NCBI GenBank assembly: GCA_964499705.1
Contig: CAZCME010000015.1
Location: 1 to 64,000 of the forward strand
Source: an uncultured bacterium
GTDB taxonomy: Bacteria > UBA8481
Direction of reading: 5' to 3'
DNA length: 64,000 bases
Shown: piece after piece, positions 16,721 through 37,344 of the stretch
How the letters are laid out: each line of letters opens with the position of its first letter
Numbering within the stretch: the first letter of the stretch is position 1
The notes under the pieces: model-generated
What the model saw: the letters and a program-made list of their open reading frames with translations, nothing else
What the model was told of the DNA's origin: nothing
The model's database searches: none
Made by a program: the position numbers and the translations under genes

Positions 16721-16723
16721 GGA

Positions 16724-19345: not shown

Positions 19346-19415
19346 GGGCTTTCCTGCCTTTCTTCGTCAGCCGGTATTTCTGGAGGCGGCTGTTGGGTTT
19401 GTCGGGGATGATCAT
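19335..19415 (-). pseudogene. C-terminal remnant of a Fic-associated/winged-helix protein
   Basis: MIIPDKPNSRLQKYRLTKKGRKALGR* is the IPDKPxSRxQKYRLT tail typical of Fic-family proteins; the rest of the gene is absent. Confidence 0.65.
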
Positions 19416-19420
19416 ATGGC

Positions 19421-20937: not shown

Positions 20938-20944
20938 TTAGGAA

Positions 20945-20980
20945 ATATTACCGATACTTCGTCATAAGTATAGTTAATAT
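20945..20980. promoter_or_regulatory. Inverted-repeat operator upstream of abiEi
   Basis: atattaccgatactt-N6-aagtatagttaatat (15-bp arms, 2 mismatches), AT-rich, 7 nt upstream of the antitoxin ATG. AbiEi proteins are known to autorepress through promoter inverted repeats. Confidence 0.65.
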
Positions 20981-21012
20981 TAACCGGACGCGCTGCGGAG
21001 TAATGAGCGGAT

Positions 21013-21054
21013 CCTGTGATGGCTACGCTCGTGCACGAGCGTAGCCATCACAGG
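21013..21054. repeat. Perfect 42-bp palindrome with no loop
   Basis: cctgtgatggctacgctcgtg|cacgagcgtagccatcacagg. Confidence 0.95.
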
Positions 21055-21182
21055 GAGATAAGTCAACGCATTGCAAATAATGTGAGCCGAATACGACGAT
21101 TTATGGCGTTGGCAGGTGTTCGGATGCTGAGGTGAAGAACACGCGGTTGATGGGCCCGAGGAGCCACGACTCGTTCATCGCG

Positions 21183-22964
21183 CTACAGGGCGAGTCTCAG
21201 GCCGAGCAAAGCGACGGTCGAGATGATTCCGATGAAGGTCCGGAGGTCGTTCATGCCTTGTCTGCGGGGTTCGTCGGACTCGACGTAGACGGTCGAGTTG
21301 GCGGGGAGTGTGGGGTTGTCCTGTTTGCCGGAAGTGATTCGGGTGAGATCGTACGTGGTGGCGCGGCCGTCGGGGAATCGGACGCGGATCGCGCTCGTTC
21401 GGGATGTGTTCGTCACGCCGCCGGCGGAGGCGAGGACTTGGGTGAGGGTGCCGGGCTGGAACTGGCCGGGGGTCTTCACGTCGCCGATGACGGTCACGGT
21501 CTGCGGTGTGTCGGCCTGACCTGCGGCGGCAACTGGAAGACGCGGAATGAGCACGCGGTCGCCTTCGCGGAGGTCGGTGTCGGGATCGTGGCCGAGGGCG
21601 ATGTCGCGGGCGTTAACGGTGGCTGTGTCGCCGTGGCCGCGGTCGATTATGACGCTGGTGAGATCGGCACGGGTGTCTGGCTTGGCTTCCCGGACGGCGT
21701 CAGCGACGGTGAAGGCTTCGGTTGTGCCGGGATGTTGCACGGGGCCGTAGACCTGCACGTTGGGGACGAGTGCGCGAGCGCGGATCGGGATTGTGATGCG
21801 GTCGCGGTCGTCCAGTCTGGGGTCGTCAAGTTTTCCGGAGAAGATTGCCTGGACGTTGATGCGCACGGATGTTTCGGCACCTGAGCGGAATTCTACGTTT
21901 TCGAGGTCGGCTTCGGGGATTGGGCCGCCGGCGGCGGAGATGGCTTCGGAGAGAAAGAGCGCGGTGACCCAGTTCGGTTTCGATACGGCGCCGGAGACGA
22001 GGATTCTTGGGAGCGTGGGAACGACGATGATCTCGCCGCCCTGCAGTTCGATGTCGCGTTCGACGCCGGCCATGATTCTGGCGGCGTTGTAGAGCGTGGT
22101 GCTTTCTCCGGAGGTGATGCGGACTTCTGTGGGATTGGCTTCGTATGTGAATCCTTCGGCGGCGGAGATTGCGCCGAGGAGGGTTGTCGCGGGAAACGTG
22201 CCGGACTTCTTTACGGCACCCAGGACGACGGCGTTGCGCTGAATCTTAACCGGGGGTGCGAGGTAGAAGACGGTGACGGGACTGGCGGCGATGCCCTTCG
22301 CGCGGATCGTGGAGTCGAGGTCCGTGGTGGCTATTGCCGCGGTCTTGCTCGCGACACGAAAGACACCGAGGCCGCGGATGAGAATCTCGCCGTCGGGATT
22401 GATCGTGAAATCCTGTGTCTGGTTGCCCACAACAATTCGTATGCGATCACCTGGGGAGAGGACGTGACCGGCTACGGTCACGTCATCGAGGGGCGCGGCT
22501 CGCCGCGCCCCTTCTGCCTCGATTGTTGAGGCGGCGTTTCGAAATGCTGATTCGTCTATCATGGGCGAAAGGTCGACGTAGCGGATCTCCGCATTGCCGT
22601 TGCGGACCATCTCGATGTTTACGTCCTTGTCGCCGTGCATGACGAGTGCCACGGTGCGGCCGTAGCGATCTGTGGAATGCGCTTGATCGATGAGCACGGT
22701 GACGCGCTCGCTGAGGATCATTTGCTTCAGAGCATCCGACGATTCTTCGCCGCCCGGTTCGCCGGTGGGCTTGTTGTGCTCGGGGTGGGCGACCTCGGGC
22801 GCGTTGATTCCGGCGAGGCGGTAATTGATCCCATCTGCGCCCTTGAACGTGTCGCCGTCGTATATGAATTCGACGGCGACCGTTCTTCGCTCAATGTCGG
22901 CTTCGGCGCGAAGGTAGGATGGACTCGATATCTGAGCGATGAGTGCGAGGATGAGAAACGTCAT
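21183..22964 (-). CDS. Thermonuclease (SNase) fused to a Wza/OPX-like protein (Poly_export domain + 4 SLBB/beta-grasp repeats + C-terminal hydrophobic helix)
   Basis: Hydrophobic N-terminus; YDGDTF, RLAGINAPE, DRYGR, NIEMVRNG (SNase); LSPGDRIRIVV...INPDGEILIRGLG (Poly_export); four V.G.V..(P)G repeats. ATG 22964 overlaps the radA-like TGA. Confidence 0.82.
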   Translation of the reverse strand: MTFLILALIAQISSPSYLRAEADIERRTVAVEFIYDGDTFKGADGINYRLAGINAPEVAHPEHNKPTGEPGGEESSDALKQMILSERVTVLIDQAHSTDRYGRTVALVMHGDKDVNIEMVRNGNAEIRYVDLSPMIDESAFRNAASTIEAEGARRAAPLDDVTVAGHVLSPGDRIRIVVGNQTQDFTINPDGEILIRGLGVFRVASKTAAIATTDLDSTIRAKGIAASPVTVFYLAPPVKIQRNAVVLGAVKKSGTFPATTLLGAISAAEGFTYEANPTEVRITSGESTTLYNAARIMAGVERDIELQGGEIIVVPTLPRILVSGAVSKPNWVTALFLSEAISAAGGPIPEADLENVEFRSGAETSVRINVQAIFSGKLDDPRLDDRDRITIPIRARALVPNVQVYGPVQHPGTTEAFTVADAVREAKPDTRADLTSVIIDRGHGDTATVNARDIALGHDPDTDLREGDRVLIPRLPVAAAGQADTPQTVTVIGDVKTPGQFQPGTLTQVLASAGGVTNTSRTSAIRVRFPDGRATTYDLTRITSGKQDNPTLPANSTVYVESDEPRRQGMNDLRTFIGIISTVALLGLRLAL

Positions 22965-24730
22965 TGCAGATTTCTTCTCGCCGGCTCGGTCGCCTTCGAC
23001 GACACGCAGTCGTTCCATACTTTGTGTAGCTGATACGCCTTTCGGATGCCGACGTTGAGCTGCCTTCGGAGAAGGTCGGGCGTGACATCGTGGTGGCGTT
23101 GAACAAGCTCGGCGATGCGCGCAATCAGCGGGTCGATGGGTGGACAAGCTGGGCGAGTGGGCGGTAGTGGGGCAGGCGGAATGATCGCCGGCGGTTCTGG
23201 AATCTGAACGGGTGCGCTTTCTGGCTTCGGTTTCTCCGGTTCGACTGGCGACTTCAATTTCCTGATCCTCTTCGAGTGCTGTTTACGCTTCGTGTCCTTC
23301 TCGAGAGATTTCGCTTTTGCCTCGATGGACTTGGCTTTGGACTGTCGCGTTTCTTTTGGACGACCAGACTCGCTTTGCTCGATTGGGAATTCGATGGCGC
23401 GTAAGGCATCGAGGAGAGTCTTCGCGCGAAACGTCGTGAGCTTCGCGCTCGGGGGGAGCGCGTCGCTGCCGATGTGAGGGACGATGACGTTCTGGATTCC
23501 GAGGATCTCGAGTTCGCGGTAGCGCGAGACGAAGTCGCGCGGCGGTAGAAGTCTTCCGTCGAGCGCTACTTCGCCGATTGCTCCCCAGCTTGTGGGCATG
23601 GGCATGGCTTTGACCGCGTGTGCCGTTGCGATCGCGACGGCGAGATCGGCGGCGGAATCCGAAATCTTGTAGCCGCCCAGGACGGTGAGCGCGATGGTGT
23701 TCGGAGCCTTGATGCCGTATCCGTCGAGGATTGTCTGGATGAGTCGGAGCCGCTCCTTCGGGTAGCCGACCACGGCTTCGGAGAGATCGCCGCGTTGGAG
23801 AAATCCGACCTGAATCTCGGTCGCGATGGGCTTCGTGCCTTCCATCGCGACAGCGATGATGCCCTTCCCGCCGCCTTTCAGAATCTCGGCACCGGGGCTG
23901 GCGACTTCCTCGATGCCGTGCGAGGTCATGCGAAAACTTCCGACCTCCTCCTTCGAGCCGAAGCGATTCTTTTCGACACGGAGGAGGATGAAACCGGGGA
24001 GGGTCATCTCGTCGAGGTGAAAAACGGCATCGTATAGATGCGGGACGGACATGGGGCCGGCGAACTCGCCGGTCTTCACGATCTGGCCGGCGACAAGAAA
24101 TGGTATGCCGGACATTTTCGCGAGCTCGACTATCTTGGCGGAGACTTCTTTGACCTGGGCCGGACTGCCGGGCTCGTTGTTGCAGGATTTCGTGCGCATT
24201 CGCTGAAGCGAGTCAATGATGACGATTACGGCCTTGAGCGCATACATCTCGTGGACGGTTTCCTCGAAACCTTTGTCCGCGAGGATGAATAGTTTGGGAT
24301 CTCGCGCATCGATACGTTTCGATCTCGCCGCGGCTTGCGGGAGCGATTCTTCCGCGGAGACGTAGAGCACGGGGCCGTGCTTCTCGGCGATGCGCGAGGC
24401 GATTTGCATGAGCATGGTGGACTTTCCGACTCCGGGTGCGCCCGTGAAAATGACGGCGGATCCCTCGCAGATGCCTCCTGCCTCGGGCGGTCCGCCGAGA
24501 ACGCGGTCGACCTCGGGGTAACAGGTCGAGATGCGCGGAGGATCTTTGACGTCGGCGTCACTTACCGAGAGCGCCGGCATTCTCGGCGCAACCCGATGCA
24601 TTGTCTGCTCGGACTCCTCGACGCGAATCTCGCTCGGATCGAGCCACTTGCCGCACGCGGGGCAACGGGGGAAGTATTCGGACTCCTGGTGCCCGCAGGA
24701 CGGACAGGAGTAGATGGCGCGGTTGCTCAT
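22961..24730 (-). CDS. radA: RadA/Sms-family ATPase with a Lys/Pro-rich linker and FtsK-gamma-like C-terminal winged helix
   Basis: CPSC...CPAC Zn finger, GAPGVGKST, YVSAEES, IIDSLQ, KNRFG signature, Lon-like ADLAVAIA...GEVALDG; extra tail DPLIARIAELV...LLRRQLNVGIRKAYQL. Confidence 0.85.
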   Translation of the reverse strand: MSNRAIYSCPSCGHQESEYFPRCPACGKWLDPSEIRVEESEQTMHRVAPRMPALSVSDADVKDPPRISTCYPEVDRVLGGPPEAGGICEGSAVIFTGAPGVGKSTMLMQIASRIAEKHGPVLYVSAEESLPQAAARSKRIDARDPKLFILADKGFEETVHEMYALKAVIVIIDSLQRMRTKSCNNEPGSPAQVKEVSAKIVELAKMSGIPFLVAGQIVKTGEFAGPMSVPHLYDAVFHLDEMTLPGFILLRVEKNRFGSKEEVGSFRMTSHGIEEVASPGAEILKGGGKGIIAVAMEGTKPIATEIQVGFLQRGDLSEAVVGYPKERLRLIQTILDGYGIKAPNTIALTVLGGYKISDSAADLAVAIATAHAVKAMPMPTSWGAIGEVALDGRLLPPRDFVSRYRELEILGIQNVIVPHIGSDALPPSAKLTTFRAKTLLDALRAIEFPIEQSESGRPKETRQSKAKSIEAKAKSLEKDTKRKQHSKRIRKLKSPVEPEKPKPESAPVQIPEPPAIIPPAPLPPTRPACPPIDPLIARIAELVQRHHDVTPDLLRRQLNVGIRKAYQLHKVWNDCVSSKATEPARRNLQ

Positions 24731-25818
24731 TCGCTTCCATCGCCTTGTCTGTGCTCCGAGGTTGTGACGGTCAGCTGGCCGTGGAGGACGAAAATGCCGC
24801 GCGAGAAGAGCGCTGCGCGGAACCGCTCCGCAGTGCAGTACGTGATGACGATCTCGTTCGCGTCTTTGCTTCTCGACTTGATCAGGACCGTGGGAAACTC
24901 CTCCGATGCGGCGAGGTAGTTCTCCTCGCGCTGGTCTTCGTCGAGTGGTTCCGTCACGAGAAGCCCGGTGACAATGGCGCTGTCCGGAATTTTGTCAGCG
25001 ATCTCATCCACGAGCAGGTGGTCGATCTCGACGTGGCTCGACTTTCTCGTGATGGGGCGAGCGCGCTCTACGAGGATGCGGTCGAGGGTGACGGACGGTG
25101 ACGACGTGCCGGTCGTGAAGACGGCATCGCCTCTGGCGAAGTAGAGCGTGGACTGCTCCACGGCAACGACACGGAATTTCTCCTCGTAGTCGGTGGGGAG
25201 AAGTGTGTCGCGCCAGGTGCCGCGGATCTTGGCGGTGAGTTCGTAGTCGGGGAAGAAGCGACGGGCCTCGCGGGAGGCGGAATACACGTCGCGCGTGAGA
25301 AGGTAGAAGCTCGAGCGCAAACCCATGACGGAGATCGGCGTAAAAGCGGTCGTGACGAGGAAGAGGAGAGCGCAGAGGATGAACTCGGGGACGCTGCCGA
25401 CGTTGATGCGGTAATCCTCGGACGCGGGAAAGACCCAGCGGGCGCGGTGCGGCCAGAAGAGTGGAACGCCGGGGATATTCGCCATGTCGATCAAGATGTG
25501 CGAGAGAACGCCGAACCATGCGGCGAGGTAGTAGAGAAGGCCCCATCCGATCCAGAGCGGTATGAAGAGGAAGAGACACGCGACTAAAAAGACCCACGAG
25601 TGCGTCACAGTGCGATGGCCGAGTTTTCGCTCGAGGAACTGCGGGATGCCGGTGAAGTAGAAGAGAAATCCGATGGTTGAGCGTGGGTGGTCGATGTCGG
25701 GGAGAAGTGAACCGATCGCGGCAAGAGCGAGCGCGGTGCCGTCCATCTCGAACTCGAAAGACGAGCACGCGAATTCGGCGGTGAGCAGGCCGAAGGGAAT
25801 GTGAGTGATCGAGGTCAT
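24727..25818 (-). CDS. YdjM-like inner-membrane metal-dependent hydrolase with a C-terminal soluble domain
   Basis: TH, GSLLPDIDH, HRTVTHS, SHILID and GVPLFWP motifs with several TM segments. Confidence 0.85.
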   Translation of the reverse strand: MTSITHIPFGLLTAEFACSSFEFEMDGTALALAAIGSLLPDIDHPRSTIGFLFYFTGIPQFLERKLGHRTVTHSWVFLVACLFLFIPLWIGWGLLYYLAAWFGVLSHILIDMANIPGVPLFWPHRARWVFPASEDYRINVGSVPEFILCALLFLVTTAFTPISVMGLRSSFYLLTRDVYSASREARRFFPDYELTAKIRGTWRDTLLPTDYEEKFRVVAVEQSTLYFARGDAVFTTGTSSPSVTLDRILVERARPITRKSSHVEIDHLLVDEIADKIPDSAIVTGLLVTEPLDEDQREENYLAASEEFPTVLIKSRSKDANEIVITYCTAERFRAALFSRGIFVLHGQLTVTTSEHRQGDGSE

Positions 25819-26711
25819 CAGTTACTTCTCGATGTCCGCATCATGAACCAGCGGACGAGGAGCATCATTCCGGAGAGCGCTCCGAAGATGGCGTACATGT
25901 CGAACTGGTACATGCCTCGGTTTATGTAGCGCATGATGATGAGAAATGCGAAGAACGTAAGGATGAGCGGCGCTGCGTCGAAATACGAATTGCCGGACCG
26001 ATGAACGAAGAGTTCACGGATGTAGGACTTGTCGATTCGCTCGGCGCCGCGGAGGCGGTCGGCGGATTCGACGATAGCGCTCGGGACTCCGCTCGAGAGC
26101 GTGGCAATCTGGTTCAGGAGAAAATCCTTCGTGCCCTTGTCGATGGGTTTCACGCCAGGGACGGTCTGTATAACGTGCGCGGCCAAATCGCGCGCGTGCT
26201 GAGGCGAGAGCGGGTTCACGATGACCTCGTCGAAGCGCCAGAAGAGGCGGTTGAATCTTGGATGCCTGTGGCGGTTTCGCGCGGCGGCGATGATCGCGAC
26301 TTTCTCGGCGAGAACCTCGATGACGGGGACCGCGAGGACGGGAAGCTGATCGAATTCGTCGAGGAGGAGAACGACTTTCTTGCCGCTCATCTGCGGGAGC
26401 GCGAGAATTTCAGCGATCATGTGGCCGAGTTCCACTATTCGTGTGGCGTGTCCGACCTTCCGCGGCTTTGAGACGCCGGCGGTGATGCAGAGCCAGGAGT
26501 AGATCGAGTCGATGATCTCCTTTGCGGGCACGGGACGGCGAACGTAGTGAATCGCTGTGTCGGTCTTCTTGATCTTGCGCTGAAGGTCGAGGAGGAGATG
26601 GGTCTTGCCGATACCGTTTCTTCCAATGAGCAAGGTGTGGTGCCCCTGCATGGTGTTCCGGAGCAAAGTCTCGATCTCGTTATCGCGACCGATGGTGGCA
26701 TCGAGGATCAC
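25818..26711 (-). CDS. AAA+/P-loop ATPase with two C-terminal transmembrane helices
   Basis: IGRDNE, GRNGIGKT Walker A, LLLDEFD Walker B, SSGVP; hydrophobic tail. Confidence 0.8.
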   Translation of the reverse strand: MILDATIGRDNEIETLLRNTMQGHHTLLIGRNGIGKTHLLLDLQRKIKKTDTAIHYVRRPVPAKEIIDSIYSWLCITAGVSKPRKVGHATRIVELGHMIAEILALPQMSGKKVVLLLDEFDQLPVLAVPVIEVLAEKVAIIAAARNRHRHPRFNRLFWRFDEVIVNPLSPQHARDLAAHVIQTVPGVKPIDKGTKDFLLNQIATLSSGVPSAIVESADRLRGAERIDKSYIRELFVHRSGNSYFDAAPLILTFFAFLIIMRYINRGMYQFDMYAIFGALSGMMLLVRWFMMRTSRSN

Positions 26712-27730
26712 GAGTCGCTCTTTGGTGAGGTGCCGACGGATACCGTGAAGTACGCGGCGGGTTTGCCGGGCTCGTGGACGTAGATCGGGATCGAGTAGAA
26801 ATCCTGTGGCTTGGTGAAGACGACTTCGAATGTGACCGTGTCGCCCTGGCGAAGGTCCTGACCGAGGACGAGGACGTTGGCCTGCACGTATCGATACTGC
26901 GTACCTTCCTTGTCGGTGCGGGAGACGGGGCGGAGGAGAAATCCGTCGACGCGCACTTCGACGGATTTCTGCGAGGTGACGGTGAGCAAGTGGGTGGCGG
27001 GGTTGTACGTTGCCGCGATACCCGGTGGCGCGGGTTCAGCGGTGGATGCTCCGGACTGTGCGACGGCAGCAACTCCATGCGTGGTCCCCGCCACCCGCTC
27101 GCTTCCACCGACGGTGCCGGAAGTTCCGGCCCCCTGGAAAGAGCGCGTGGCGCGTTTGGTCTGACCGTCTTCGATCCACTCGAACTGAACCGAAAAGTTG
27201 TCGGCGGGAAGTTCGATGGTTTGGTTTGGGGCGAGAGTGCCGATCAGGCGATAACGCGGCTTCGTCACCTCGAGATTGATCGCGGGCACGTCGCCGGCAT
27301 TCGTGAGCTTGCCGTTTTGCACGACGATGAGCGGGCGACCGTTGTTCTGGCTTGCACCGGGCATAAGCGTCGTGAGGTCGATCTCGCTTCGCGCGACATG
27401 GGCGGTGATGATCGCGGCGAGGAAGATCGTGGCGGCGATGACGGTGACGCGGATCGGAGGCGCGGATGTGGCGGCGCGAGTGAGTTTCGCTGTCCACACA
27501 CACACGGATTTCGCGAGCACGCGTAAAAATCTCGTAATTAATGAGTCCGGAACTGGTGCGGCATGAGTTACGAGCGGTATGGAATAGGGCGTCTTGACGG
27601 TCGACCTGCGCGCTTCACGGAATTCCGGATCATCGAGTGGAATCTCAACGACAGAGACTGCGCGTGCGTGGGGCGTGCCGGATGAGCGCACGCTCGTGGC
27701 GACGCGCTGGCCGTAGATCATTCGACTCAT
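26708..27730 (-). CDS. Single-pass membrane protein of unknown function with beta-rich extracytoplasmic domains
   Basis: TM segment VTVIAATIFLAAIITAHVA; ATGA/GTGA overlaps with both neighbours. Confidence 0.7.
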   Translation of the reverse strand: MSRMIYGQRVATSVRSSGTPHARAVSVVEIPLDDPEFREARRSTVKTPYSIPLVTHAAPVPDSLITRFLRVLAKSVCVWTAKLTRAATSAPPIRVTVIAATIFLAAIITAHVARSEIDLTTLMPGASQNNGRPLIVVQNGKLTNAGDVPAINLEVTKPRYRLIGTLAPNQTIELPADNFSVQFEWIEDGQTKRATRSFQGAGTSGTVGGSERVAGTTHGVAAVAQSGASTAEPAPPGIAATYNPATHLLTVTSQKSVEVRVDGFLLRPVSRTDKEGTQYRYVQANVLVLGQDLRQGDTVTFEVVFTKPQDFYSIPIYVHEPGKPAAYFTVSVGTSPKSDS

Positions 27731-28380
27731 GGTGTGAGTCGATTCGCGCGGAGCACTTCGATCACGTCTCGCCATGCCGCATCGGCTGATTTACCATCCG
27801 CGCCGGCGACGGCGACCGTGAGTCCTATGTCGATCGGCTTGCCGTTTCCGGGCGTGACGAGACAGACGGATTTGGCGATTCTGTCGGAGATCTCCGCGGC
27901 ACTCTCCGTGTCCGAATTGCGGAGTATAAGACCGAAGATGCCAGGATCGATACGGGCGAGGTCATCGCCTGTTCGTATGGCCGAGAGAAGCGAGGCCGCG
28001 AGATTCTTCACGACGATGTCTCCTCGCTGCGCGCCGAATCGAATGTAGATCCCCTCAATGTCGAATGCGAACGCGGCGATGCTGATGAAGAAGCGATGGC
28101 TCGCGGTTGCGATCTCGGCGGCCAGACGGTGGAAGAAGAATGCTCGACTTTTTGTCTGCGTGAGCGGGTCGATTGCATTCTCGCGGCGGATGTTCTCGAC
28201 GATGGGACGGAATATGCGAGTGAGGTCGATGTTGCGCCGGGGATCGGCGAGAATCGCGGCGTCAAACGCTACGCCGAGGCACTCCGGGCAGATGAAGACG
28301 ATGAGTTCTCCCGCTTCCACGACGCGCGCGTCAGTGACCGCGCCGCACGAGAGCGGGCATGTATGACGAAGAAGGCTCAT
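27727..28380 (-). CDS. Zn-finger plus degenerate GGDEF-domain protein (I-site retained)
   Basis: CPLSC...CPEC; DPLT, FDIE, G...GD; RTGD I-site followed by DLARIDPGIF in place of GGDEF. Confidence 0.8.
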   Translation of the reverse strand: MSLLRHTCPLSCGAVTDARVVEAGELIVFICPECLGVAFDAAILADPRRNIDLTRIFRPIVENIRRENAIDPLTQTKSRAFFFHRLAAEIATASHRFFISIAAFAFDIEGIYIRFGAQRGDIVVKNLAASLLSAIRTGDDLARIDPGIFGLILRNSDTESAAEISDRIAKSVCLVTPGNGKPIDIGLTVAVAGADGKSADAAWRDVIEVLRANRLTP

Positions 28381-28664
28381 TGAAGAACCATCCCGACGAT
28401 CCAATTATCTGTGAGGGGCGACCGTTTTCGATGTAGCCGGACGATTACAGCGCCGTGTGTCTCGCCGTGAAGGGTAAGCGAGATCGGCGCGCGTAGATCT
28501 TCGACAGTCCATGACAGGAACGCGGGATCATGGATTCGGACAGCGCAATTTGTCGCGGAGAAATCGAGGAGATTGCCTTTGCACCGCTTGTCGCCGCGCG
28601 TGAGTTTTACGAGCGCGAGCGATGATGTCCTCATCCGCACGGAGACGCGATCGCGGCGGATCAT
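28377..28664 (-). CDS. PilZ-like small protein (divergent motifs)
   Basis: 95 aa; N-terminal RRDRVSV, GNLLDFSATNCAVRI (DxSxxG-like with N), AVIVR and terminal WIVGMVL follow the PilZ barrel pattern; ATGA-coupled on both sides. Confidence 0.55.
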   Translation of the reverse strand: MIRRDRVSVRMRTSSLALVKLTRGDKRCKGNLLDFSATNCAVRIHDPAFLSWTVEDLRAPISLTLHGETHGAVIVRLHRKRSPLTDNWIVGMVLQ

Positions 28665-29287
28665 CCGTCCCTCCTGCGCCAGTCGGGGGCGCTCCAGGTG
28701 AGCCGAAGGCCTTCGCAAAGTCGCGAGAGGGCGCGGGGATACCGTTCCTCGAAGGCGGCCATGTCGAGATTTGTGGCGATGAGCGTGGGGAGCCGCCGGC
28801 GGTATCGCTGATCGAGGATTCGGTCGGCGAGTTCGCGCGTCCAGTCGGACCGACCCTCGGCCCCGAGGTCGTCGAGGATGAGGAGGTGCTGATACTCGCC
28901 AAGGTTGGGCACGATGGCGCCGTGGTCTGAGATCGCGTTACGGTGCCGTTCGACGAGGTCCGGATGATACCAGTACCAGACCTCCTTTCCGGACTCGATC
29001 CAGCTCGTTGCAAAGGCGAGGAGGGCGTGGGTCTTTCCTGAACCGAAGTTCGTTTTGCCTCGGTCTGAGTGGAGAAAGGCACTCCACTCCGCGAATCTCC
29101 ACGTCCGGAGCATCGGTGTCTGCTCGCGGAGTTCGAGAATCTCCTGCCACGTCGCCCAGGTGCAATTCTCGCGGCCGGCCTGCGCGGCGAGTCGGTCGAG
29201 CAGGCATTGCTTGCACCGTCGGACAGACTCACGTCCCTGCGGATCCTTGGTGTAGAGCCAGCCGCTCATGCATCCGTGTTCGGTCAT
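28661..29287 (-). CDS. DnaC/IstB-like ATPase (helicase loader)
   Basis: N-terminal Cys/His, FGSGKTHA, LLILDDLGAE, RYRRRLPTLIATN; GGAGG RBS; follows the replication initiator. Confidence 0.85.
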   Translation of the reverse strand: MTEHGCMSGWLYTKDPQGRESVRRCKQCLLDRLAAQAGRENCTWATWQEILELREQTPMLRTWRFAEWSAFLHSDRGKTNFGSGKTHALLAFATSWIESGKEVWYWYHPDLVERHRNAISDHGAIVPNLGEYQHLLILDDLGAEGRSDWTRELADRILDQRYRRRLPTLIATNLDMAAFEERYPRALSRLCEGLRLTWSAPDWRRRDG

Positions 29288-30291
29288 GATTTCCTCCTCG
29301 TCGATGGATGCGGGAAGGTCTTGAGGACCGCCCCTGATTCGATGTCGTATTGCTCGCGCATGAGCTGGCCGTCGATGAGCCGGTCGCGGATGTCGGTCTT
29401 TCTCTGAGGGGCCGATGGCGCGGCGCATTCTCTCCGACCGCTTCTCGTCGAACTCGGCCTGCCGCTGTCCTGTTGAGTCGTGAGCCAGCTCGTGACGAAG
29501 CGGCCGATGCCCGCGGCGGTCTTCCGGCGTTTCGGGTTGCCGATGAGCCACGCGCGCATTTTGCCAAGCTCGTGTCGAACATCGACGCCGGGGAAGGCTT
29601 TCTCCATCTCGGTGATGAAGTCTTCGGTGACAGGCGCTTCCTTGTCGCTTGTCAGCGGGAGCATCACGACGATTTCGCCGGTGCATTGTGTAGCGGGCTT
29701 GACTCCTCCATGTCGCTTCAGTTTTGCCACTTGTGCAACCGGCTTGGAGGAATCGCCACTCGTCGGCGATCCCTCCGAGCTACCAGATTCCTGCTCCTGT
29801 TCTTGCTCCTGCTCCTGCTCTTTAACCCCCTCAGGTGCGGGTGACCTCGTTTCGACACGTGGGGGGACAGGTGTCGGGGAGTAGGATTCGAAGATCCCGT
29901 GCAGGTGCCGGGACAGGTGCGCTGTATTGGCGAAGAAGTGGCTGAGGAGATGCGTCGATGGCAGGTCGTGGAGGTCGTTCAGGCAGTTCTTGAAGACGCT
30001 GGGGTTCTCCGGCGCGTTGTACTTCCACCAGGTGGGGATGTAGAGGACGCGGAGTTGGTTGTCGAAGCGCCATTCGAAGGTCCGGCAGACCTTGTCGAAG
30101 AAGAGGAGGAAGACGTTCGGCTCGAGGTTCAGGTCCTCGGCAGCGAGTGCGGGAGAAAAGTTGAAGAGGCCGATGCGATTGGATTGCGCGGTGAAGGCGT
30201 AGATCGCGACCAGCTTTTCGATGTGATCCAGCTTGCGGATGTTCTCGTCACGCCACATTCGGGGATCGATCTTTCGGTATCGCTGAGCCAT
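29284..30291 (-). CDS. Phage-type replication initiator protein
   Basis: MAQRYRKIDPRMWRD N-terminus, WWKYN, EQEQEQEQE linker, C-terminal ELGKMRAWL..NP.RRKT..GI.RF..SWL domain; directly upstream of the DnaC-like gene. Confidence 0.8.
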   Translation of the reverse strand: MAQRYRKIDPRMWRDENIRKLDHIEKLVAIYAFTAQSNRIGLFNFSPALAAEDLNLEPNVFLLFFDKVCRTFEWRFDNQLRVLYIPTWWKYNAPENPSVFKNCLNDLHDLPSTHLLSHFFANTAHLSRHLHGIFESYSPTPVPPRVETRSPAPEGVKEQEQEQEQEQESGSSEGSPTSGDSSKPVAQVAKLKRHGGVKPATQCTGEIVVMLPLTSDKEAPVTEDFITEMEKAFPGVDVRHELGKMRAWLIGNPKRRKTAAGIGRFVTSWLTTQQDSGRPSSTRSGRRECAAPSAPQRKTDIRDRLIDGQLMREQYDIESGAVLKTFPHPSTRRKS

Positions 30292-30292
30292 C

Positions 30293-31060
30293 TCAGTGGT
30301 CCGGCTTCGCCACGACGCGCTTTGCGCGTTCTTCGTCCGTGAGGTCGCCGGCGTAAACGGATGTCGCGCGGCCACGATCCTTCGCGGCGTAGAGCGCGGC
30401 ATCGGCGAGATCGAAAATGCGGTCGTGGAGTTCGATGGCGTCGTCAGGAGGAGTCTCGCCGAAGTCGGGCGGATACGAGGAGATGCCGCATGAAACATTG
30501 ATGCTGCTCTTCAGAGATCGACCCGTGATCGCGTGGAATTGGTATTCGGACGTTTCCTTCACGATGCGCTCGGCAATGGCTTTGGCGCCGACGACATCGG
30601 TCTCGGGGAGGATGAGGCCAAACTCGTCGCCTCCGACGCGGGCGGCGCAATCGCTCTTACGGGTGAAGTGCGCGAGGAGTTCTCCGAACTCCTTCAAGAC
30701 GAAATCACCGGTTGCGTGGCCGAAATCGTCGTTTGCGGCCTTGAAGCCATCGAGGTCCATGAGGACGAGCGAGAGAAAGTGCGAGCCTTTCGCGCGAGCG
30801 AGCTCGGCGGTGAGTTGCCGATCGAAGAACTTGCGATTGCCGAGGCCTGTGAGTTTGTCGATGTACGCGCCCTTCTCGATCTGGCGGATGCGGCCGAGGA
30901 GTGTGGTCATGAACTGATCCGCGGGCATTCCGCGCTCGGCGACGATGCCGATGACGGCCTGCGACGGAAGCCAGATTCCGAGGCATGTCTGGCAGATGTC
31001 GAAGTTGACGGACGCGATCTTCTGCGTCTCGATCGGCACACGACAGCAGGGACAGTCCAT
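30293..31060 (-). CDS. zf-TFIIB-like Zn finger plus diguanylate cyclase (intact GGDEF)
   Basis: CPCC...DICQTCLGIWL; DKLTGLGNR, DLDGFK.AND.FGH.TGD, RKSD I-site, ARVGGDEF, ADAALYAAK. Start at 31060 or 31111. Confidence 0.92.
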   Translation of the reverse strand: MDCPCCRVPIETQKIASVNFDICQTCLGIWLPSQAVIGIVAERGMPADQFMTTLLGRIRQIEKGAYIDKLTGLGNRKFFDRQLTAELARAKGSHFLSLVLMDLDGFKAANDDFGHATGDFVLKEFGELLAHFTRKSDCAARVGGDEFGLILPETDVVGAKAIAERIVKETSEYQFHAITGRSLKSSINVSCGISSYPPDFGETPPDDAIELHDRIFDLADAALYAAKDRGRATSVYAGDLTDEERAKRVVAKPDH

Positions 31061-31070
31061 CAGACGCGTT

Positions 31071-31433
31071 TCACTTCGCTGGCGGCGTTTCGGTTTCATC
31101 GTGTGATCCATTTCGTTCGGCGACCAGTTTTTCGACGACGGCGCCGACCTTCTCGCGGATGTCGGAGGCCTGAAGGACCTGACCGCCGCGGAGCTCGTTC
31201 ACCTTGTCGCGGAGGTAGAAGTGCGCGAGAACCAGGTCCCGGTCTTTACTGTCCCATGCGTACGGATCGGCCTCGACGTATGCGTCATCGTCGATCGCGA
31301 TCATGTAGAGACCTTCCGTAGTGATGCCGACATCGGCGGTGCGATCGTCGGCGAGTTTTGCAAAGTTGATCGGGATGAGCGCGACGAGATAGTGGCGATC
31401 GCCGGTCTCGAGGCGGAAGTGTTTTACGCGCAT
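31071..31433 (-). CDS. Hypothetical protein (120 aa)
   Basis: Protein-like ORF that fills its slot in the operon. Confidence 0.65.
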   Translation of the reverse strand: MRVKHFRLETGDRHYLVALIPINFAKLADDRTADVGITTEGLYMIAIDDDAYVEADPYAWDSKDRDLVLAHFYLRDKVNELRGGQVLQASDIREKVGAVVEKLVAERNGSHDETETPPAK

Positions 31434-31798
31434 GGGGAGCTTCGATCCTCGAAGAGTGAGGACTGGCGTGGAAGGGCTACGCTCTGGCGGAACGCGGTTT
31501 CGAGGGCTTTGAGTCGCTCGCTCAGCGCGACAATGCGCGCGGTGAGTTCGTGCCGCGCGGCTTCGAATTCCGCTTCGTTTGCGATGATGAAGTAGCCGTT
31601 TACGGGATCCGCGCCGATGGGCACTCGATGAGTCTTGATGAGCGCCTCGATGGTCTCGCGCAGGCGACGGTTGGGGAGATCGAGTTTTTCCTGAAGAGCT
31701 TTGCCGCCGATGCCGTTTCCGGAACCGGTGTGGTCTCTTTGCAGGGCGGAGAGGACTGCATCCTCGTTGGGCGTGAGCTTCATGTGTCTGTCATCCAC
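31424..31798 (-). CDS. Winged-helix DNA-binding protein of phage/satellite type
   Basis: HTG..NGI..KAL...L....RRLRETIEAL.....PIGA....GYFI pattern followed by a coiled-coil tail. Confidence 0.7.
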   Translation of the reverse strand: MDDRHMKLTPNEDAVLSALQRDHTGSGNGIGGKALQEKLDLPNRRLRETIEALIKTHRVPIGADPVNGYFIIANEAEFEAARHELTARIVALSERLKALETAFRQSVALPRQSSLFEDRSSPCA

Positions 31799-32045
31799 GT
31801 TTCTTCGCGGGTTTCTTCAGGGCCGCCGGCGTGTGATCAGGCCTATCGTCGGGATCGAACGGGAGCTTCTCTTCGGGGGTCGGGCTGTCAGACGGCGGAA
31901 TCGGGAGCGCGATTGCGATCCGGACTTCCTGGTCGACGAGGTCGGCGAGAAGCGAGATGTCGGGCGGGGAGATGTCGAGCACGGCCTGCATTCCGGAGTC
32001 TGTGATCTCGAGGCTCTTGATGATCGCGGGGAACGAGAAGGTCAC
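31791..32045 (-). CDS. Hypothetical protein (84 aa)
   Basis: GTG start overlaps the upstream TGA; stop overlaps the next gene. Confidence 0.6.
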   Translation of the reverse strand: MTFSFPAIIKSLEITDSGMQAVLDISPPDISLLADLVDQEVRIAIALPIPPSDSPTPEEKLPFDPDDRPDHTPAALKKPAKKRG

Positions 32046-32197
32046 GGTGTTCTCCGGCGGTAGTGGCGCCGGCGGTCGACTCGGCGACGGTCGCCGTATC
32101 GCCGGCGGCCGTGTTCGAGCATTGTGATGCGATGCCGGCGGTTGGCGGTGCCTCGTCGCTCTTGAGTGCGGCGCTCGCCGGTGCGTCGGCTATTCAT
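32042..32197 (-). CDS. 51-aa arginine-repeat peptide (not in the ORF track)
   Basis: MNSRRTGERRTQERRGTANRRHRITMLEHGRRRYGDRRRVDRRRHYRRRTP*; GGAGG RBS at 32205-32209; ATGA overlap upstream and GTGA overlap downstream. Confidence 0.7.
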   Translation of the reverse strand: MNSRRTGERRTQERRGTANRRHRITMLEHGRRRYGDRRRVDRRRHYRRRTP

Positions 32198-32370
32198 TTG
32201 GCCGCCTCCGTCTGGAATTCGACTTCACGGGCAAGACGGAGGAGGCGAGCCCACGCCCAGAGGCAATCGGGGGAGGAGGAGTAGACGACGCCTTTGGGCA
32301 ATGTCGGTTGGGAAGCGGCGTCATTCCGGACATCGGCGGCTCGGTCCGTGTTGGGCTGATCGTCAAGCAT
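32194..32370 (-). CDS. Hypothetical protein (58 aa)
   Basis: ATG 32370 with AGGAG RBS, overlapping the cro-like stop. Confidence 0.55.
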   Translation of the reverse strand: MLDDQPNTDRAADVRNDAASQPTLPKGVVYSSSPDCLWAWARLLRLAREVEFQTEAAK

Positions 32371-32653
32371 CGCGTCTCCTTCGCGCCTGCGGACGATCAC
32401 GGCGGGGGAGATTTGGCCGTGCGCTGGATTGCTCGGACCAGCGGCAACCCGCTTCGGTGAACATTCGGGGGAATAGAACGTAGGGAGGCACACCGAGAGC
32501 TTTGGCGATGCGAAGTGCGGTAGCCGGTCTGGTATGGGCGCGAGCTTCAATCCTGGCAATTCCACCGCGAGTGAGGCCCACGCGGCGTGCCAGTTCCCCA
32601 AGCGACCATCCCTTGGCGAGGCGGATTTCTTTCAGTGGTTCTTTCAGTTCCAT
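32363..32653 (-). CDS. Cro-like XRE helix-turn-helix regulator
   Basis: LKEIRLAKGWSLGELARRVGLTRGGIARIE...IAKALGV; first gene of the long operon. Confidence 0.85.
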   Translation of the reverse strand: MELKEPLKEIRLAKGWSLGELARRVGLTRGGIARIEARAHTRPATALRIAKALGVPPYVLFPRMFTEAGCRWSEQSSARPNLPRRDRPQARRRRDA

Positions 32654-32762
32654 ATCAATTATGAATGACAGATATGAACTACAAATTAGCATTCTGTCAA
32701 CATTAGATTTCATACGCGTTATTTGTGTTGACAAACGTTGACAAACCGCTACATTTCCACTC
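32654..32762. promoter_or_regulatory. Divergent promoter/operator region of the switch
   Basis: AT-rich; TTGACA on the minus strand (32695-32700) and twice on the plus strand (32728, 32738, in a tandem GTTGACAAAC repeat); TACATT at 32750-32755, 7 nt before the ATG. Confidence 0.7.
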
Positions 32763-33158
32763 ATGAAAGTCATCGAGTTTCTCAAGCAGACGTTAAAGGA
32801 CTGTGACAAGCCTCAATACGAGGTGTGCAATAGCGTGAACGTCGCGCAATCGACGCTCAGCCATGTGATGCGCGGGCGCAGCGATCCCAGACTGGACACC
32901 TTTGTGAAGCTTGGTGGTCCGCTCGGCTACGAGGTGCAGGTCGTCACAAGGAAGGCGGCCTTCATGCTCGGGATCAAGGGAGGCAAGGCGGATCTTGTCG
33001 AAGAAAATAGCAGGCGCAAGGAAACTCGATTGGAACGGCTCGCGACCTTCTACTCACGGCGATTATCTCCCCTGGAGCTCGAAGGCTTGTGCGAGGAGCT
33101 GGAGATGCGCGCAGATCACATCGACAAACAAAAAAAGCGCGTCGCGAAAGCGAGCTAA
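32763..33158 (+). CDS. XRE-family HTH repressor (CI-like, no peptidase domain)
   Basis: QYEVCNSVNVAQSTLSHVMRGRSDPRLDTFVKL; divergent from the cro-like gene and upstream of the integrase. Confidence 0.8.
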   Translation: MKVIEFLKQTLKDCDKPQYEVCNSVNVAQSTLSHVMRGRSDPRLDTFVKLGGPLGYEVQVVTRKAAFMLGIKGGKADLVEENSRRKETRLERLATFYSRRLSPLELEGLCEELEMRADHIDKQKKRVAKAS

Positions 33159-33323
33159 CCCCTTGGACGCCCACGCTGATCCTGGGCGGCAAGCCGGAAT
33201 CGGCACCGGTGCTCGAACTTGCGAAGCCGCGAAAGCCGCGAAAACGTCGGTCCCCTTCGGTGCCGGCGATCAGCAATCCGGAATCTGGTCCGGTGATATG
33301 CACTGATCCGGGAGGGTCGAACT

Positions 33324-34907
33324 ATGAATAAGAAATCAGAGGAGAACGCGGAAGGCGTTATTATGCCGCCCGAACGTCGCGCCATCATCTACTGTCGCGT
33401 CTCGACGGAAGAGCAGGCCAAGGGCGGCATCTCGATCGAGATGCAGATGGAAAAATTGCACCACCTTGCGAAAGTTCACGACCTCACTGTCACCGAAACC
33501 ATCTGTGACGCCGGCGTCTCAGCGAAAAACCTCCATCGCAAGGGAGTCGAGAAAGCGCTTGAACTTGTGCGCGAAGGCCATGTCTCGCATCTCCTCATCT
33601 ATAAGCTGGATCGCCTCTCGCGTTCCATTCGAGATATCGGCGTGCTCATCGACCTCTTTCAAGAAAAGGGAGTGGCTCTCATCTCAGCAACCGAAAGTAT
33701 CGACACTGCTTCGCCAATGGGGCGGATGATCTGCAACATCCTCGGGTCGTTTGCGCAATTCGAACGTGAACTTATCGCGGAGCGGACGCGTGATGCTATG
33801 GAGCAACTTTGGAAGGCCGGTCGCTGGACAACGCGCGCTCCATTCGGATACATCTTCGATGATAATCGCCGGCTACTCCCGCATCCGGAGCAGGCTCCAC
33901 TGGTGCGCGAGCTATTCGAGCGAACGGCCGATGAACGACTGACGACGAGAGACGCATTTCACTCGGTTATCGACGACAGCCGCTACACTGCGGCGCGAAA
34001 GTGGAACAAGTCTGGTGTTTACTTCGTCCTGACATCTCGCGTTTACCTGGGCGAGGTGAAGCGAGGCAAGAAGTGGGGGCGCGGGATGCACGACGGTATC
34101 ATCGACGCCGAACTCTTTGATCGTGTTCAGGGTCAGCTCAGCGCGCGCAACAATATCGGGACGATTACGCGCGGACTCTCCGCGAATGTGCTGGCGGGTA
34201 TCGCGGTGTGCGGGCATTGCGGCCGGAAGCTAATCGCACGAACCGGGCGCAGGAAAGGTTCGAAGACCGACAAGGATCGTCAGACCGCGCGCTACGCTTA
34301 TTACGTCTGCCCAAGTTCTGCGGATCGAAAAGACTGCGTGCTTGCGCCGGTTCCAGCACCTGCAATCGAGGAGGCGATCTTCTCCGAGATGGCGAGCATC
34401 GGGCAGAACCGGGCCTTGGTGGCTGCCATCGTTCGTGATGCTGAAACGTTGCTCGAGACCAGAACTCGCGGCGAACGGGTCGAGATCAAGACGGCGCGCC
34501 GGCGACTCACGCTTCTCGAGAAGAAAGTTCGCGTCGTCATGGATCACCTTTCGGAGATTCCTCCGAGTGATCCGCGCGCCAAGGAATTCACGACCGAGCT
34601 CGATCGGTTGAGCGCGGAGAAGGACTTGGTGAGCAACCGCGTCAGCGAGATCGAGGCACAGCTCTTCACGAAGCGCCGCGACCGGATGAACGTGGATCTG
34701 CTGGTCTCCCTGCTGATGTATCCCAGGCTCTACCTGCCGAAGCTGAACGGGAAAGACCTGCGTGAGGTCATGAAGGGGATCATCCACAAAGCGACGATCT
34801 GGAGCCGTGAGGAGATCGAAATCGAGGTCGCCGTGCCCGCAGGCTCGCGCGGGGTTATGATGGCGTCCAATGGAGCGTCCCCAACGGGATTCGAACCCGT
34901 GTTTTAG
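33324..34907 (+). CDS. Large serine recombinase (integrase)
   Basis: IYCRVSTEEQ catalytic Ser, KLDRLSR, FAQFERELIAERT, APFGY, CGHCG Zn ribbon, coiled coil; GGAGG RBS; last codons read antisense through the tRNA. Confidence 0.95.
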   Translation: MNKKSEENAEGVIMPPERRAIIYCRVSTEEQAKGGISIEMQMEKLHHLAKVHDLTVTETICDAGVSAKNLHRKGVEKALELVREGHVSHLLIYKLDRLSRSIRDIGVLIDLFQEKGVALISATESIDTASPMGRMICNILGSFAQFERELIAERTRDAMEQLWKAGRWTTRAPFGYIFDDNRRLLPHPEQAPLVRELFERTADERLTTRDAFHSVIDDSRYTAARKWNKSGVYFVLTSRVYLGEVKRGKKWGRGMHDGIIDAELFDRVQGQLSARNNIGTITRGLSANVLAGIAVCGHCGRKLIARTGRRKGSKTDKDRQTARYAYYVCPSSADRKDCVLAPVPAPAIEEAIFSEMASIGQNRALVAAIVRDAETLLETRTRGERVEIKTARRRLTLLEKKVRVVMDHLSEIPPSDPRAKEFTTELDRLSAEKDLVSNRVSEIEAQLFTKRRDRMNVDLLVSLLMYPRLYLPKLNGKDLREVMKGIIHKATIWSREEIEIEVAVPAGSRGVMMASNGASPTGFEPVF

Positions 34908-34948
34908 CCTTGAAAGGGCCATGTCCTGGGCCTCTGGACGATGGGGAC
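34876..34948 (-). tRNA. tRNA-Glu (anticodon TTC); CCA not contiguous
   Basis: GTCCCCATCGTCCAGAGGCCCAGGACATGGCCCTTTCAAGGCTAAAACACGGGTTCGAATCCCGTTGGGGACG: 7-bp acceptor stem, CTTTCAA loop, GTTCGAATC T-loop. Confidence 0.95.
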
Positions 34949-35010
34949 TGGATGCAGGTCGAAAAACGACGGGGAATTATCCCATGGGCGGCGGCGTTCC
35001 GCCACCGAAA

Positions 35011-37165: not shown

Positions 37166-37344
37166 GAGCGCGGAAAAGTGTATCAGGATGCGGCGCGCAG
37201 GAAAAGAAAAAGGCCGGGAATTCCAGAGGGGCCCCGGGCTGAGGGTTCGGTTGACACGCCCTCCGCCACACCTGATAGTGATTCATCGTGACGGGGTTTC
37301 AAACCAGGTTCGACCGGCAGGCGCGCCGTTTCCGAAGGGAAGGG

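Follow-up and report, generated by a model that had tools for sequence, protein, structure and literature searches.

The stretch of DNA analysed here, referred to as the window, covers the first 64 kb of contig CAZCME010000015.1 (99.6 kb in all), part of a 96%-complete assembly (4.67 Mb, 45 contigs) of an uncultured bacterium whose GTDB phylum consists of five genomes only. Positions 21183-34948 of the window comprise the regulatory region, the replication genes and the core of a mobile element that was integrated by a large serine recombinase. The element is of an ordinary kind, being integrative and having a switch and replication genes like those of phages; its operon ends in five genes, g05 to g01, that form a conserved envelope module which appears to be undescribed and is widely distributed on mobile DNA. 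The sequence is present in nine public runs from five studies, all of them groundwater or unlabelled, with no RNA runs among the listed holders.

The open reading frame (ORF) listing and start-codon analysis define 16 consecutive minus-strand ORFs (Table 1), running from the start of the cro-like gene g16 at 32653 to the stop of g01 at 21183. Nine junctions (g15/g14, g14/g13, g09/g08, g08/g07, g07/g06, g06/g05, g05/g04, g03/g02 and g02/g01) are 4-nucleotide ATGA or GTGA overlaps, that of g04/g03 is TGATG, and those of g16/g15, g13/g12 and g12/g11 overlap by 8-10 nucleotides; g10/g09 has a 1-nucleotide gap and the g11/g10 junction is ambiguous. From g09 to g01 all junctions overlap. On the basis of these overlaps, g16 to g01 are one translationally coupled 16-gene operon under a cI/Cro-type divergent switch. 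In the control region a repeat search finds two copies of GTTGACAAAC at 32727-32746 and a further one, inverted, at 32687-32704. There are also two plus-strand promoter-like sites, at 32665-32692 and 32728-32755, the number of sites in the promoter and terminator scan being no higher than in shuffled sequence. The palindrome between g01 and the start of AbiEi may be a terminator-like hairpin without a T-run, marking the operon end, or an operator of AbiEi.

Table 1. Features of the window; the upper coordinate of each gene from g16 to g01 is its likely start
Feature	Position	Strand	Basis or remark
g16, Cro-like helix-turn-helix (HTH) protein, first operon gene	32363..32653	-	HTH_3 2.9e-12
g15, 58 residues, no family	32194..32370	-	
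g14, 51 residues, 21 Arg/Lys (41%)	32042..32197	-	ATGA/GTGA-coupled on both sides
g13, 84 residues, acidic	31791..32045	-	weak homologue in sister-genus element
g12, 124 residues	31424..31798	-	phrog_2113 1.7e-16
g11, 120 residues, no family	31071..31433	-	59% identity in sister genus
g10, Zn-ribbon diguanylate cyclase (apparent)	30293..31111	-	GGDEF 4e-40 (137.7 bits), Zn_ribbon_TFIIB 7.3e-06; start 31111 (or 31099/31060)
g09, predicted replication initiator, DnaD-like/O-like	29284..30291	-	phrog_1701 4e-17
g08, DnaC/IstB-like helicase loader (predicted)	28661..29287	-	IstB_IS21 4.3e-07; phrog_50 4.1e-23
g07, 95 residues, basic	28377..28664	-	no Pfam, NCBIfam or PHROG match; not in sister genus
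g06, Zn-ribbon plus degenerate GGDEF	27727..28380	-	GGDEF 1e-11
g05, bitopic membrane protein	26708..27730	-	transmembrane scan; no Pfam family
g04, AAA+ ATPase with C-terminal two-helix membrane hairpin	25818..26711	-	AAA_22 1.1e-07; transmembrane scan
g03, long YdjM membrane metal-dependent hydrolase	24727..25818	-	YdjM 1.3e-25
g02, RadA/Sms paralogue	22961..24730	-	TIGR00416 1.6e-83
g01, secreted SNase fused to Wza-like outer-membrane polysaccharide export (OPX) protein	21183..22964	-	SNase 1.4e-13, Poly_export 8.8e-07, SLBB_2 2.8e-23
42-nucleotide perfect palindrome	21013..21054	.	~130 nucleotides after g01 stop; read from sequence
Divergent control region, 109 bp, operator-like repeats	32654..32762	.	
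cI-like HTH repressor candidate, divergent from operon	32763..33158	+	HTH_3 1e-4, 22.7 bits (just below 23-bit cut-off)
Large serine recombinase	33324..34907	+	Resolvase 2.3e-41, Recombinase 1.2e-09, Zn_ribbon_recom 4.3e-10
tRNA-Glu(UUC), integration site, right element end	34875..34948	-	ARAGORN
AbiEi	20320-20937		
AbiEii	19421-20368		
GmrSD with DUF4268	16724-19345		
Two tandem hsdM	15106-16599, 13586-15109		
187-residue ORF without family	13026-13589		
1526-residue SIR2-domain protein	8430-13010		inserted between hsdM and hsdS
hsdS	7237-8496		
hsdR	4338-7337		

The right end of the integrated element is the tRNA-Glu gene. As in integrative elements with large serine recombinases, the recombinase has all three Pfam domains above cut-off and its gene lies at a tRNA, which its 3' end overlaps by 33 nucleotides (34875-34907); since the recombinase frame reaches this far into the tRNA, the element seems to supply the 3' part of the latter. 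Genes of dapA, lysA and arginine-biosynthesis type follow to the right of the tRNA, and the recombinase on the one side with these housekeeping genes on the other places the element end there. The tRNA-Glu region is repeated nowhere else in the genome, and the second attachment site was not found, because the contig begins inside or left of the element. Contigs from four public runs cover 19000-38000 in pieces and yield no trustworthy joint of an excised or circular form, all candidate joints having just 20-31 nucleotides on the shorter side.

An initial annotation, made from the letters and the ORFs alone, had proposed that 16 minus-strand ORFs ending at 21183 form one operon of an integrative element with phage-type replication. 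The operon is borne out by the ORF listing and by start-codon and junction analysis, the integrative nature by the recombinase overlapping tRNA-Glu, the housekeeping genes beyond and the divergent cI/Cro-type control region, and the phage-type replication by PHROG matches of initiator and DnaC-like loader. The domain assignments in the same annotation stand for the diguanylate cyclase, initiator, DnaC-like protein, degenerate GGDEF, AAA+ ATPase, YdjM, RadA and SNase-OPX; that of a PilZ domain to g07 does not, and that of a gamma-type tail to g02 is suggestive only.

In the regulatory and replication part of the operon, g11 to g15 are small soluble proteins in which the transmembrane scan finds no segment. 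Homologues of g12 occur upstream of the initiator in Omnitrophota elements (blastp; loci L093, L013 and L011). For g14, an arginine-rich nucleic-acid-binding peptide and a high-G+C artefact are both possible, and either could hold. By their PHROG and Pfam matches g09 and g08 are predicted to be a theta-type or phage-type initiator plus a DnaC-like loader. The GGDEF domain of g10 has an intact GGDEF motif and an RxxD I-site (RKSD-x5-GGDEF), i.e. the features of diguanylate cyclases, and g10 is thus apparently an active enzyme making cyclic di-GMP (c-di-GMP). In g06, DPGIF replaces GGDEF at the active site and the I-site is retained as RTGD (RxxD), making it a candidate c-di-GMP receptor. The PilZ assignment to g07 is not supported, there being no Pfam match at E<=0.01 and g07 not being among the genome's 10 PF07238 matches at E<=10. 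The host genome has at least 10 PilZ-domain matches above cut-off, so that receptors of the host could also respond to c-di-GMP from the cyclase of the element.

The module itself begins with g05, which has one transmembrane helix (residues 95-113) and a beta-rich outer domain of ~225 residues, for which comparison with the ESM Atlas gives weak CARDB/Ig-like structural leads only (<=0.38). Its homologues lie directly upstream of the ATPase in loci L010, L011, L012, L013, L015, L093 and L094. The alignment of the g04 family (n=17) shows an invariant Walker A motif, Walker B Asp and tail residues together with a conserved hairpin; a PDB profile search returns generic AAA+ proteins only. In a family search g04 weakly resembles Orc1/Cdc6- and Hda-type AAA+ proteins. 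The hydrolase g03, the genome's only YdjM, consists of a YdjM domain (residues 1-164), with His/Asp/Glu invariant in the family alignment, and a 199-residue C-terminal domain. It has a weak match to Zn-dependent phospholipase C (E=0.0071), while PDB profile searches give no match for either the whole protein or its C-terminal domain. A search of 1.84 billion representatives with a profile of the latter gives 406 clusters at E<=1e-3, with the domain nearly always beginning at residue 160-170; in the ESM Atlas the g03 domain resembles only another long-YdjM cluster (TM score 0.83), apart from weak WYL-like leads (0.37).

The two remaining module proteins combine known domains in unusual contexts. 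RadA model TIGR00416 covers g02 end to end (positions 5-453) with 281 bits (cut-off 403), and g02 has the C4 Zn ribbon, a RecA-like ATPase with Walker A, the KNRFG motif and a Lon-like domain; a housekeeping radA, 33% identical to g02, is present on another contig (C2). The score below cut-off, together with the separate canonical radA, identifies g02 as a divergent paralogue with an added tail. This tail is a low-complexity disordered linker followed by a conserved C-terminal motif of ~45 residues, kept in eight of 12 relatives, the four most distant ending in Lys/Arg-rich tails. Matches of g02 to phage DnaB-like families (phrog_19, 1.1e-12) are also found, and on plasmids it matches canonical RadA only, at ~32% identity. 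In g01 the SNase domain scores 51.6 bits, Poly_export 29.5 bits (cut-off 28) and SLBB_2 82.3 bits; there is an N-terminal signal without a cysteine lipobox and, by transmembrane scan, a C-terminal hydrophobic helix (574-592). Staphylococcal nuclease uses DGDT as a calcium site and an Arg/Glu/Arg catalytic set. The corresponding DGDT, R49, E57 and R103 do not vary among 11 fusion proteins and 10 module-linked SNases, one metal ligand being Asn instead of Asp in 10 of the 11 fusions; all but one of 10 aligned SNases have signal peptides.

The operon recurs in another genus of the same family, where g13, g11, g10, g09, g08, g05, g04, g03, g02 and g01 follow in the same order at 34-70% identity; synteny of ten genes at this level of divergence implies that the operon pattern is not due to chance. 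The sister-genus element lacks g06 and g07, there being no separate g06 homologue and the sole tblastn match falling inside its g10-like gene, and its OPX protein has a repeat-rich N terminus in place of SNase. It adjoins tmRNA (L008 4957-7769) and has a tyrosine-integrase-like gene instead of the serine recombinase. With the operon kept at another site beside another integrase, the integration module seems exchangeable. Database searches give small families, with 17 full-length relatives of g03, 14 of g01 (10 of them SNase-OPX fusions) and 11 of g02. Homologues of g03, g02 and g01 are found alike on contigs of 57537, 32351 and 25834 nucleotides, which may be the same contigs, only an indirect sign of co-location.

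Beyond the family, the recurring unit is the g04-g03 pair, a cassette that occurs across phyla on plasmids and small integrative elements. Loci were fetched from genomes and metagenomes by g03 alignment and then analysed by iterative searches with local hidden Markov models (HMMs), long and short YdjM proteins being separated at 280 residues, an approximate division with ORF lengths counted from the first possible start. Among loci with a flank of at least 1 kb, an adjacent, co-directional g04-like ATPase lies upstream of 47 of 68 long YdjM genes versus four of 54 short ones. Clustering at 50% identity sorts the 53 pairs into 22 groups, which by their record labels originate from Omnitrophota, Planctomycetia, Bacteroidota, Spirochaetota, Fusobacteriota, Gemmatimonadota, Acidobacteriota and others. 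Synteny, the absence of which had been named initially as grounds for rejecting the proposal, is thus present both as co-occurrence of the genes in a second genus and as recurrence of the g04-g03 core across phyla. A neighbour scan covered 150 proteins from 20 representative loci (the sister-genus locus being dropped and one locus having no neighbours). Among Pfam families, ParA-type ATPases (5), Phage_integrase (3), VapE (3), Rep3 (3), the DnaG zinc finger (3) and ParE (3) are the most frequent, with no capsid, terminase, type IV secretion system (T4SS) or defence family among the 25 commonest; of ten immediate neighbours in distant loci, only a methylase and an SNF2 helicase (both in L088) are recognised.

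The simplest contexts are loci of Omnitrophota/Planctomycetia type, in which an HTH or sigma-like gene is followed by a g12-like gene (L011, L013 and L093), an O-like initiator, a g05-like gene with signal peptide, the ATPase, the hydrolase, a 120-residue Poly_export protein, Xis-like genes and a tyrosine integrase. The Poly_export mini-protein is directly after the hydrolase in eight such loci (Pfam being run on one of the eight). The array in L093, ~6.6 kb between host lipid-metabolism genes and tRNA-Thr, contains regulators, the initiator, four membrane or periplasmic genes, two Xis-like genes and the integrase only, and nothing else in the small elements could be a transfer or virion function. 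Read by eye, its Poly_export protein, with a lipobox and a hydrophobic C terminus, is like a miniature Wza. No att repeat is found in L093. At 12147-12368 of the same locus the 3' end of a tRNA-Tyr is repeated 196 nucleotides downstream with 92% identity, which may be the scar of another integration.

On plasmids the pair keeps varied company. In PLSDB, g03 matches 150 plasmids, 122 of which are typed non-mobilizable, and g04 matches six, all non-mobilizable, as are all eight annotated plasmids with the pair. Thermus pL4C has, in order, the ATPase, a hypothetical protein, a half-size OEP, two hypotheticals, the hydrolase and a thermonuclease; Synechocystis pSYSX has ATPase, hydrolase, DUF87, three hypotheticals and thermonuclease; a Gloeocapsa plasmid has ParA, ParB, two hypotheticals, ATPase, hydrolase and DUF87; and a Synechococcus elongatus plasmid has a thermonuclease nearby and then a hypothetical, ATPase, hydrolase and a 'T4SS DNA-binding domain' protein. 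A Microcystis plasmid has the hydrolase, the same ATPase type, a hypothetical and a half-size OEP, an Allochromatium plasmid a hypothetical, ATPase, hydrolase and CHAP peptidoglycan hydrolase, and Nitrosococcus and Methylobacter plasmids a hypothetical, ATPase and hydrolase only. The upstream partners of the pair on plasmids belong to no Pfam family and do not resemble g05. On Nitrosococcus oceani plasmid A (L194 6156-6696) a MazF-type toxin gene and a small ORF lie between ATPase and hydrolase.

Around the conserved two-gene membrane core there is thus repeated, non-homologous recruitment of motors, outer-membrane proteins, nucleases and, once, a peptidoglycan hydrolase. The motor is RadA-like in the present element and DUF87/type IV coupling protein (T4CP)-like in loci of cyanobacteria and acidobacteria; on four cyanobacterial plasmids the gene directly after the hydrolase encodes a DUF87 or 'T4SS DNA-binding domain' ATPase, and an HMM of these four ATPases also matches L150, L164, L157, L023 and L031. 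The outer-membrane part is a Wza-like OPX protein here and a half-size TolC/OEP in the Thermus and Microcystis clusters. SNase genes are found in eight of 86 long-YdjM loci versus one of 62 short-only loci, directly downstream of the hydrolase in Riemerella; on the plasmids of Thermus, Synechocystis and S. elongatus, thermonuclease genes are likewise close to the pair.

The window had been reported as free of capsid, terminase, relaxase and VirB4 genes, and this holds for Pfam and PHROG searches of its ORFs and, with six Pfam families, throughout the genome: PF03354, PF03237 and PF05065 (terminase and HK97 capsid; the portal family was not part of this search) and PF03135, PF02534 and PF03432 (VirB4, T4CP and relaxase; other relaxase families were likewise outside it) all have zero matches. 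Neither Pfam nor PHROGs recognise small-terminase or capsid-redirecting genes in the operon or window. Viral collections hold no full-length g03 relatives, IMG/VR giving 15 loci with the N-terminal domain only and INPHARED two partial matches. An inovirus-like nature was considered and rejected, g04 having no Zot match and neither g11-g15 nor the small ORFs of L093 having a transmembrane segment; the analogy fails since the small proteins are not hydrophobic. In the literature no paper on the module was found (supplementary files lying outside the search), publications on YdjM with phage giving SOS or annotation mentions only and those on pL4C a genome note only; a lead for DUF457, the Cap1 pore paper, concerns DUF4579 and is hence unrelated.

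The reading of the module that is tentatively preferred, from domain content and gene context, is that it may be an envelope-spanning apparatus with which the element exports or processes DNA. On flipping of the switch, the element would replicate and the module would assemble into an envelope-spanning complex, with g04, g03 and g05 as inner-membrane and periplasmic platform, g02 as an ATP-driven hexameric DNA motor with a DNA-binding-like tail, and the OPX part of g01 as outer-membrane conduit. DNA would be nicked or trimmed by the SNase and perhaps also by the YdjM hydrolase, and element DNA would leave the cell by export or release with neither T4SS nor capsid, in a donor-side secretion with a logic like that of Thermus transjugation. 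In this lineage only, c-di-GMP made by g10 and sensed by g06 might gate the process. A wider proposal, more speculative and on balance rather unlikely, is that the membrane-tailed AAA+ ATPase and long YdjM are the common core of a new T4SS-independent system of DNA secretion or transfer, completed in each lineage with its own motor, outer-membrane pore and secreted SNase and c-di-GMP-gated in the present one; such a system would spread plasmids and elements typed 'non-mobilizable' in cyanobacteria, Thermus, Omnitrophota, Planctomycetes and this groundwater phylum.

Of known systems, ICETh1 of Thermus thermophilus is the closest functional precedent; its DNA donation is described as needing only a membrane-associated hexameric ATPase and nucleases, the DNA being pushed out and taken up by the recipient's competence system (PMC5365140). 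ICETh1 (with the TdtA hexameric ATPase, a NurA-like nuclease and Tth111II) is, like the present element, small, tRNA-integrated and without a T4SS, and the two may share a logic of motor, nuclease and membrane platform, the likeness being one of logic. By contrast, ICETh1 combines a motor of HerA/FtsK type with a NurA nuclease and a restriction enzyme, appears not to replicate, and is not known to have a YdjM hydrolase, membrane-tailed AAA+ ATPase or outer-membrane protein, whereas the element analysed here has its own initiator and loader.

Other comparisons are with individual parts. In T4CPs and the FtsK-like TraB proteins of actinomycete integrative elements a single DNA translocase moves element DNA, and the DUF87 or 'T4SS DNA-binding domain' annotation of the cyanobacterial module gene after the hydrolase is in keeping with this. 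The tethered C-terminal motif of g02 is reminiscent of FtsK gamma, the match not being significant; g02 is, however, a RadA/Sms paralogue and not a relative of FtsK/VirD4, and PF02534 and PF03135 are absent from the genome. Like Wza-type OPX proteins, g01 has Poly_export, SLBB and a C-terminal hydrophobic helix, and the L093 mini-version has a lipobox; unlike them, g01 is fused to SNase, has no lipobox and is encoded in a mobile-element operon with no polysaccharide synthesis genes nearby. ExeA/GspA-ExeB comprises an AAA_22 ATPase with a transmembrane segment and a bitopic partner that helps to assemble an outer-membrane secretin. The membrane-anchored, AAA_22-type g04, paired with bitopic g05 and an outer-membrane multimer, is of similar design, but has generic AAA+ similarity only and a hairpin tail without a peptidoglycan-binding domain. 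Lambdoid early regions and phage-inducible islands share with this element the divergent HTH pair with operator-like repeats, the O/DnaD-like initiator, the DnaC/P-like loader and the integrase at a tRNA; by contrast, no late, virion, lysis or packaging-redirection genes are recognised here and the integrase is a serine recombinase.

Several points weigh against a DNA-exporting or DNA-processing apparatus. Every functional step beyond the encoding of the genes is drawn from gene context, and the content of the element is seen in part, its left end being beyond the contig start. The invariant unit is g04 plus g03 only, such that an 'envelope-spanning machine' fits a lineage-specific elaboration and not the minimal unit; on gammaproteobacterial plasmids the pair has an unrelated soluble partner and no adjoining motor, outer-membrane protein or nuclease. 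The g02 tail is the genome's second-best place for FtsK_gamma (PF09397), after the real FtsK, with a match that is not significant (E=0.124, 14.6 bits, cut-off 30.6). Different lineages use different motors and RadA also belongs to the DnaB-type helicases, so that g02 could simply act as a helicase in replication or recombination. The maintenance regions of plasmids are known to contain thermonuclease genes (RP4 ParB, pKM101 nuc), and the association with SNase may thus in part be due to the plasmid background. The usual role of Poly_export/OPX proteins and c-di-GMP receptors is in the export of polysaccharides, and there are defence genes among the neighbours, with Abi and restriction-modification genes near the pair and AbiE, GmrSD and a type I restriction-modification system beside the operon. 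Finally, the c-di-GMP genes lie outside the conserved module, g10 being common only to the sister genus and g06 and g07 missing even there. The initial idea that replication is coupled to a transfer or envelope apparatus under c-di-GMP control is thus sustained in part: the c-di-GMP link is real in this operon and confined to this lineage, and the DNA-handling role is deduced from gene context.

The main rival, which is unlikely but deserves serious weight, is a role in defence or exclusion, with the ATPase as switch and YdjM as an effector attacking membranes or nucleic acids, and with the periplasmic SNase-OPX degrading incoming phage, plasmid or transforming DNA; the element would then be a plasmid-like island or helper-dependent satellite with a payload. 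Two-gene cassettes of ATPase plus effector are a typical form of defence system on plasmids, prophages and satellites, and the signal peptides on all but one of the 10 SNases fit an attack on DNA outside the cytoplasm. The combination of integrase, cI/Cro pair and replication genes without virion genes is like that of phage-inducible islands, AbiEi/AbiEii, GmrSD and type I restriction-modification with a SIR2 protein come after the operon, and Abi, methylase, HEPN and GIY-YIG genes are near the pair on some plasmids, as are a methylase and SNF2 helicase in L088. Set against this, PADLOC-DB v2, which does not cover systems described after 2023, has no match for g03, g05, g06, g07, g08, g09 or g10, the matches that it gives being one of 19 bits for the SNase domain and short ones for g04 and g02 confined to the N-terminal P-loop/ATPase region. 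The module is coupled translationally to replication genes downstream of a Cro-like gene and would thus be expected to be on after induction and not at rest. The top neighbours of the pair concern replication, partition and integration, with no defence family in the 25 commonest, no small-terminase or capsid-redirecting genes are recognised, and in the ~6.6 kb elements the module would have to be the sole payload.

Remodelling of the envelope is a distinctly less probable explanation. The module would then alter or breach the envelope and not carry DNA, be it by hydrolysis of lipid or lipid-linked glycan by a phospholipase C-like YdjM, polymer export via the OPX protein, vesicle formation or lysis, with release or surface conversion under c-di-GMP control of the kind seen in exopolysaccharide secretion systems. 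Poly_export and SLBB are polysaccharide-export domains, the weak phospholipase C match of g03 is in accord with this role, and a diguanylate cyclase and a degenerate GGDEF protein with an I-site adjoin the module, a pattern known from Pel and alginate secretion. The CHAP peptidoglycan hydrolase after the pair in Allochromatium also points this way, as does the position of the module beside xis-int in small elements, where temperate phages often have their conversion genes. However, neither the operon nor the small elements have a glycosyltransferase, polymerase or flippase, the c-di-GMP genes are missing from other module-bearing lineages (g10 being shared with the sister genus only), and the recurrent DNA-motor ATPases and nucleases would be left unexplained.

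More doubtful still is replicon maintenance, in which the pair would tether or organise the replicating element at the membrane, or resolve or segregate its copies, with g02 as a replicative or recombination helicase and the nuclease as a maintenance nuclease: it would account for the position of the pair directly after the initiator in small elements and beside ParA/ParB or Rep genes on plasmids, for the weak likeness of g04 to Orc1/Cdc6 and Hda and for the DnaB-type relationships of RadA and g02, but a DnaC-like loader and initiator are already there and the signal-peptide g05 homologues, lipoprotein mini-OPX, OEP and secreted SNase have no role in cytoplasmic maintenance.

The remainder of the window includes a defence island (4338-20937; Table 1) directly left of the operon. 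At its far side are a plus-strand gene for a deaminase-domain protein (840-1652; dCMP_cyt_deam_1 6.7e-14) and, after it, an 846-residue ORF (1782-4322) with no Pfam family. The chromosomal part of the window has a minus-strand ORF of 3124 residues at 43827-53201.

Many plasmids and small integrative elements lack a recognisable way to move between cells. The conserved envelope-associated set described here accompanies genes for replication and integration in at least seven phyla, and in the ~6.6 kb elements it is the only content besides the element's housekeeping functions, making it a concrete candidate for an overlooked mechanism of transfer, release or exclusion. The proposal is testable, since homologous clusters are on plasmids of tractable strains, including Synechocystis PCC 6803, Synechococcus elongatus and Thermus. 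The operon would give a first functional context to the widespread, uncharacterised YdjM/DUF457 family and to the SNase-OPX fusion and, in this lineage, links induction of a mobile element to c-di-GMP.

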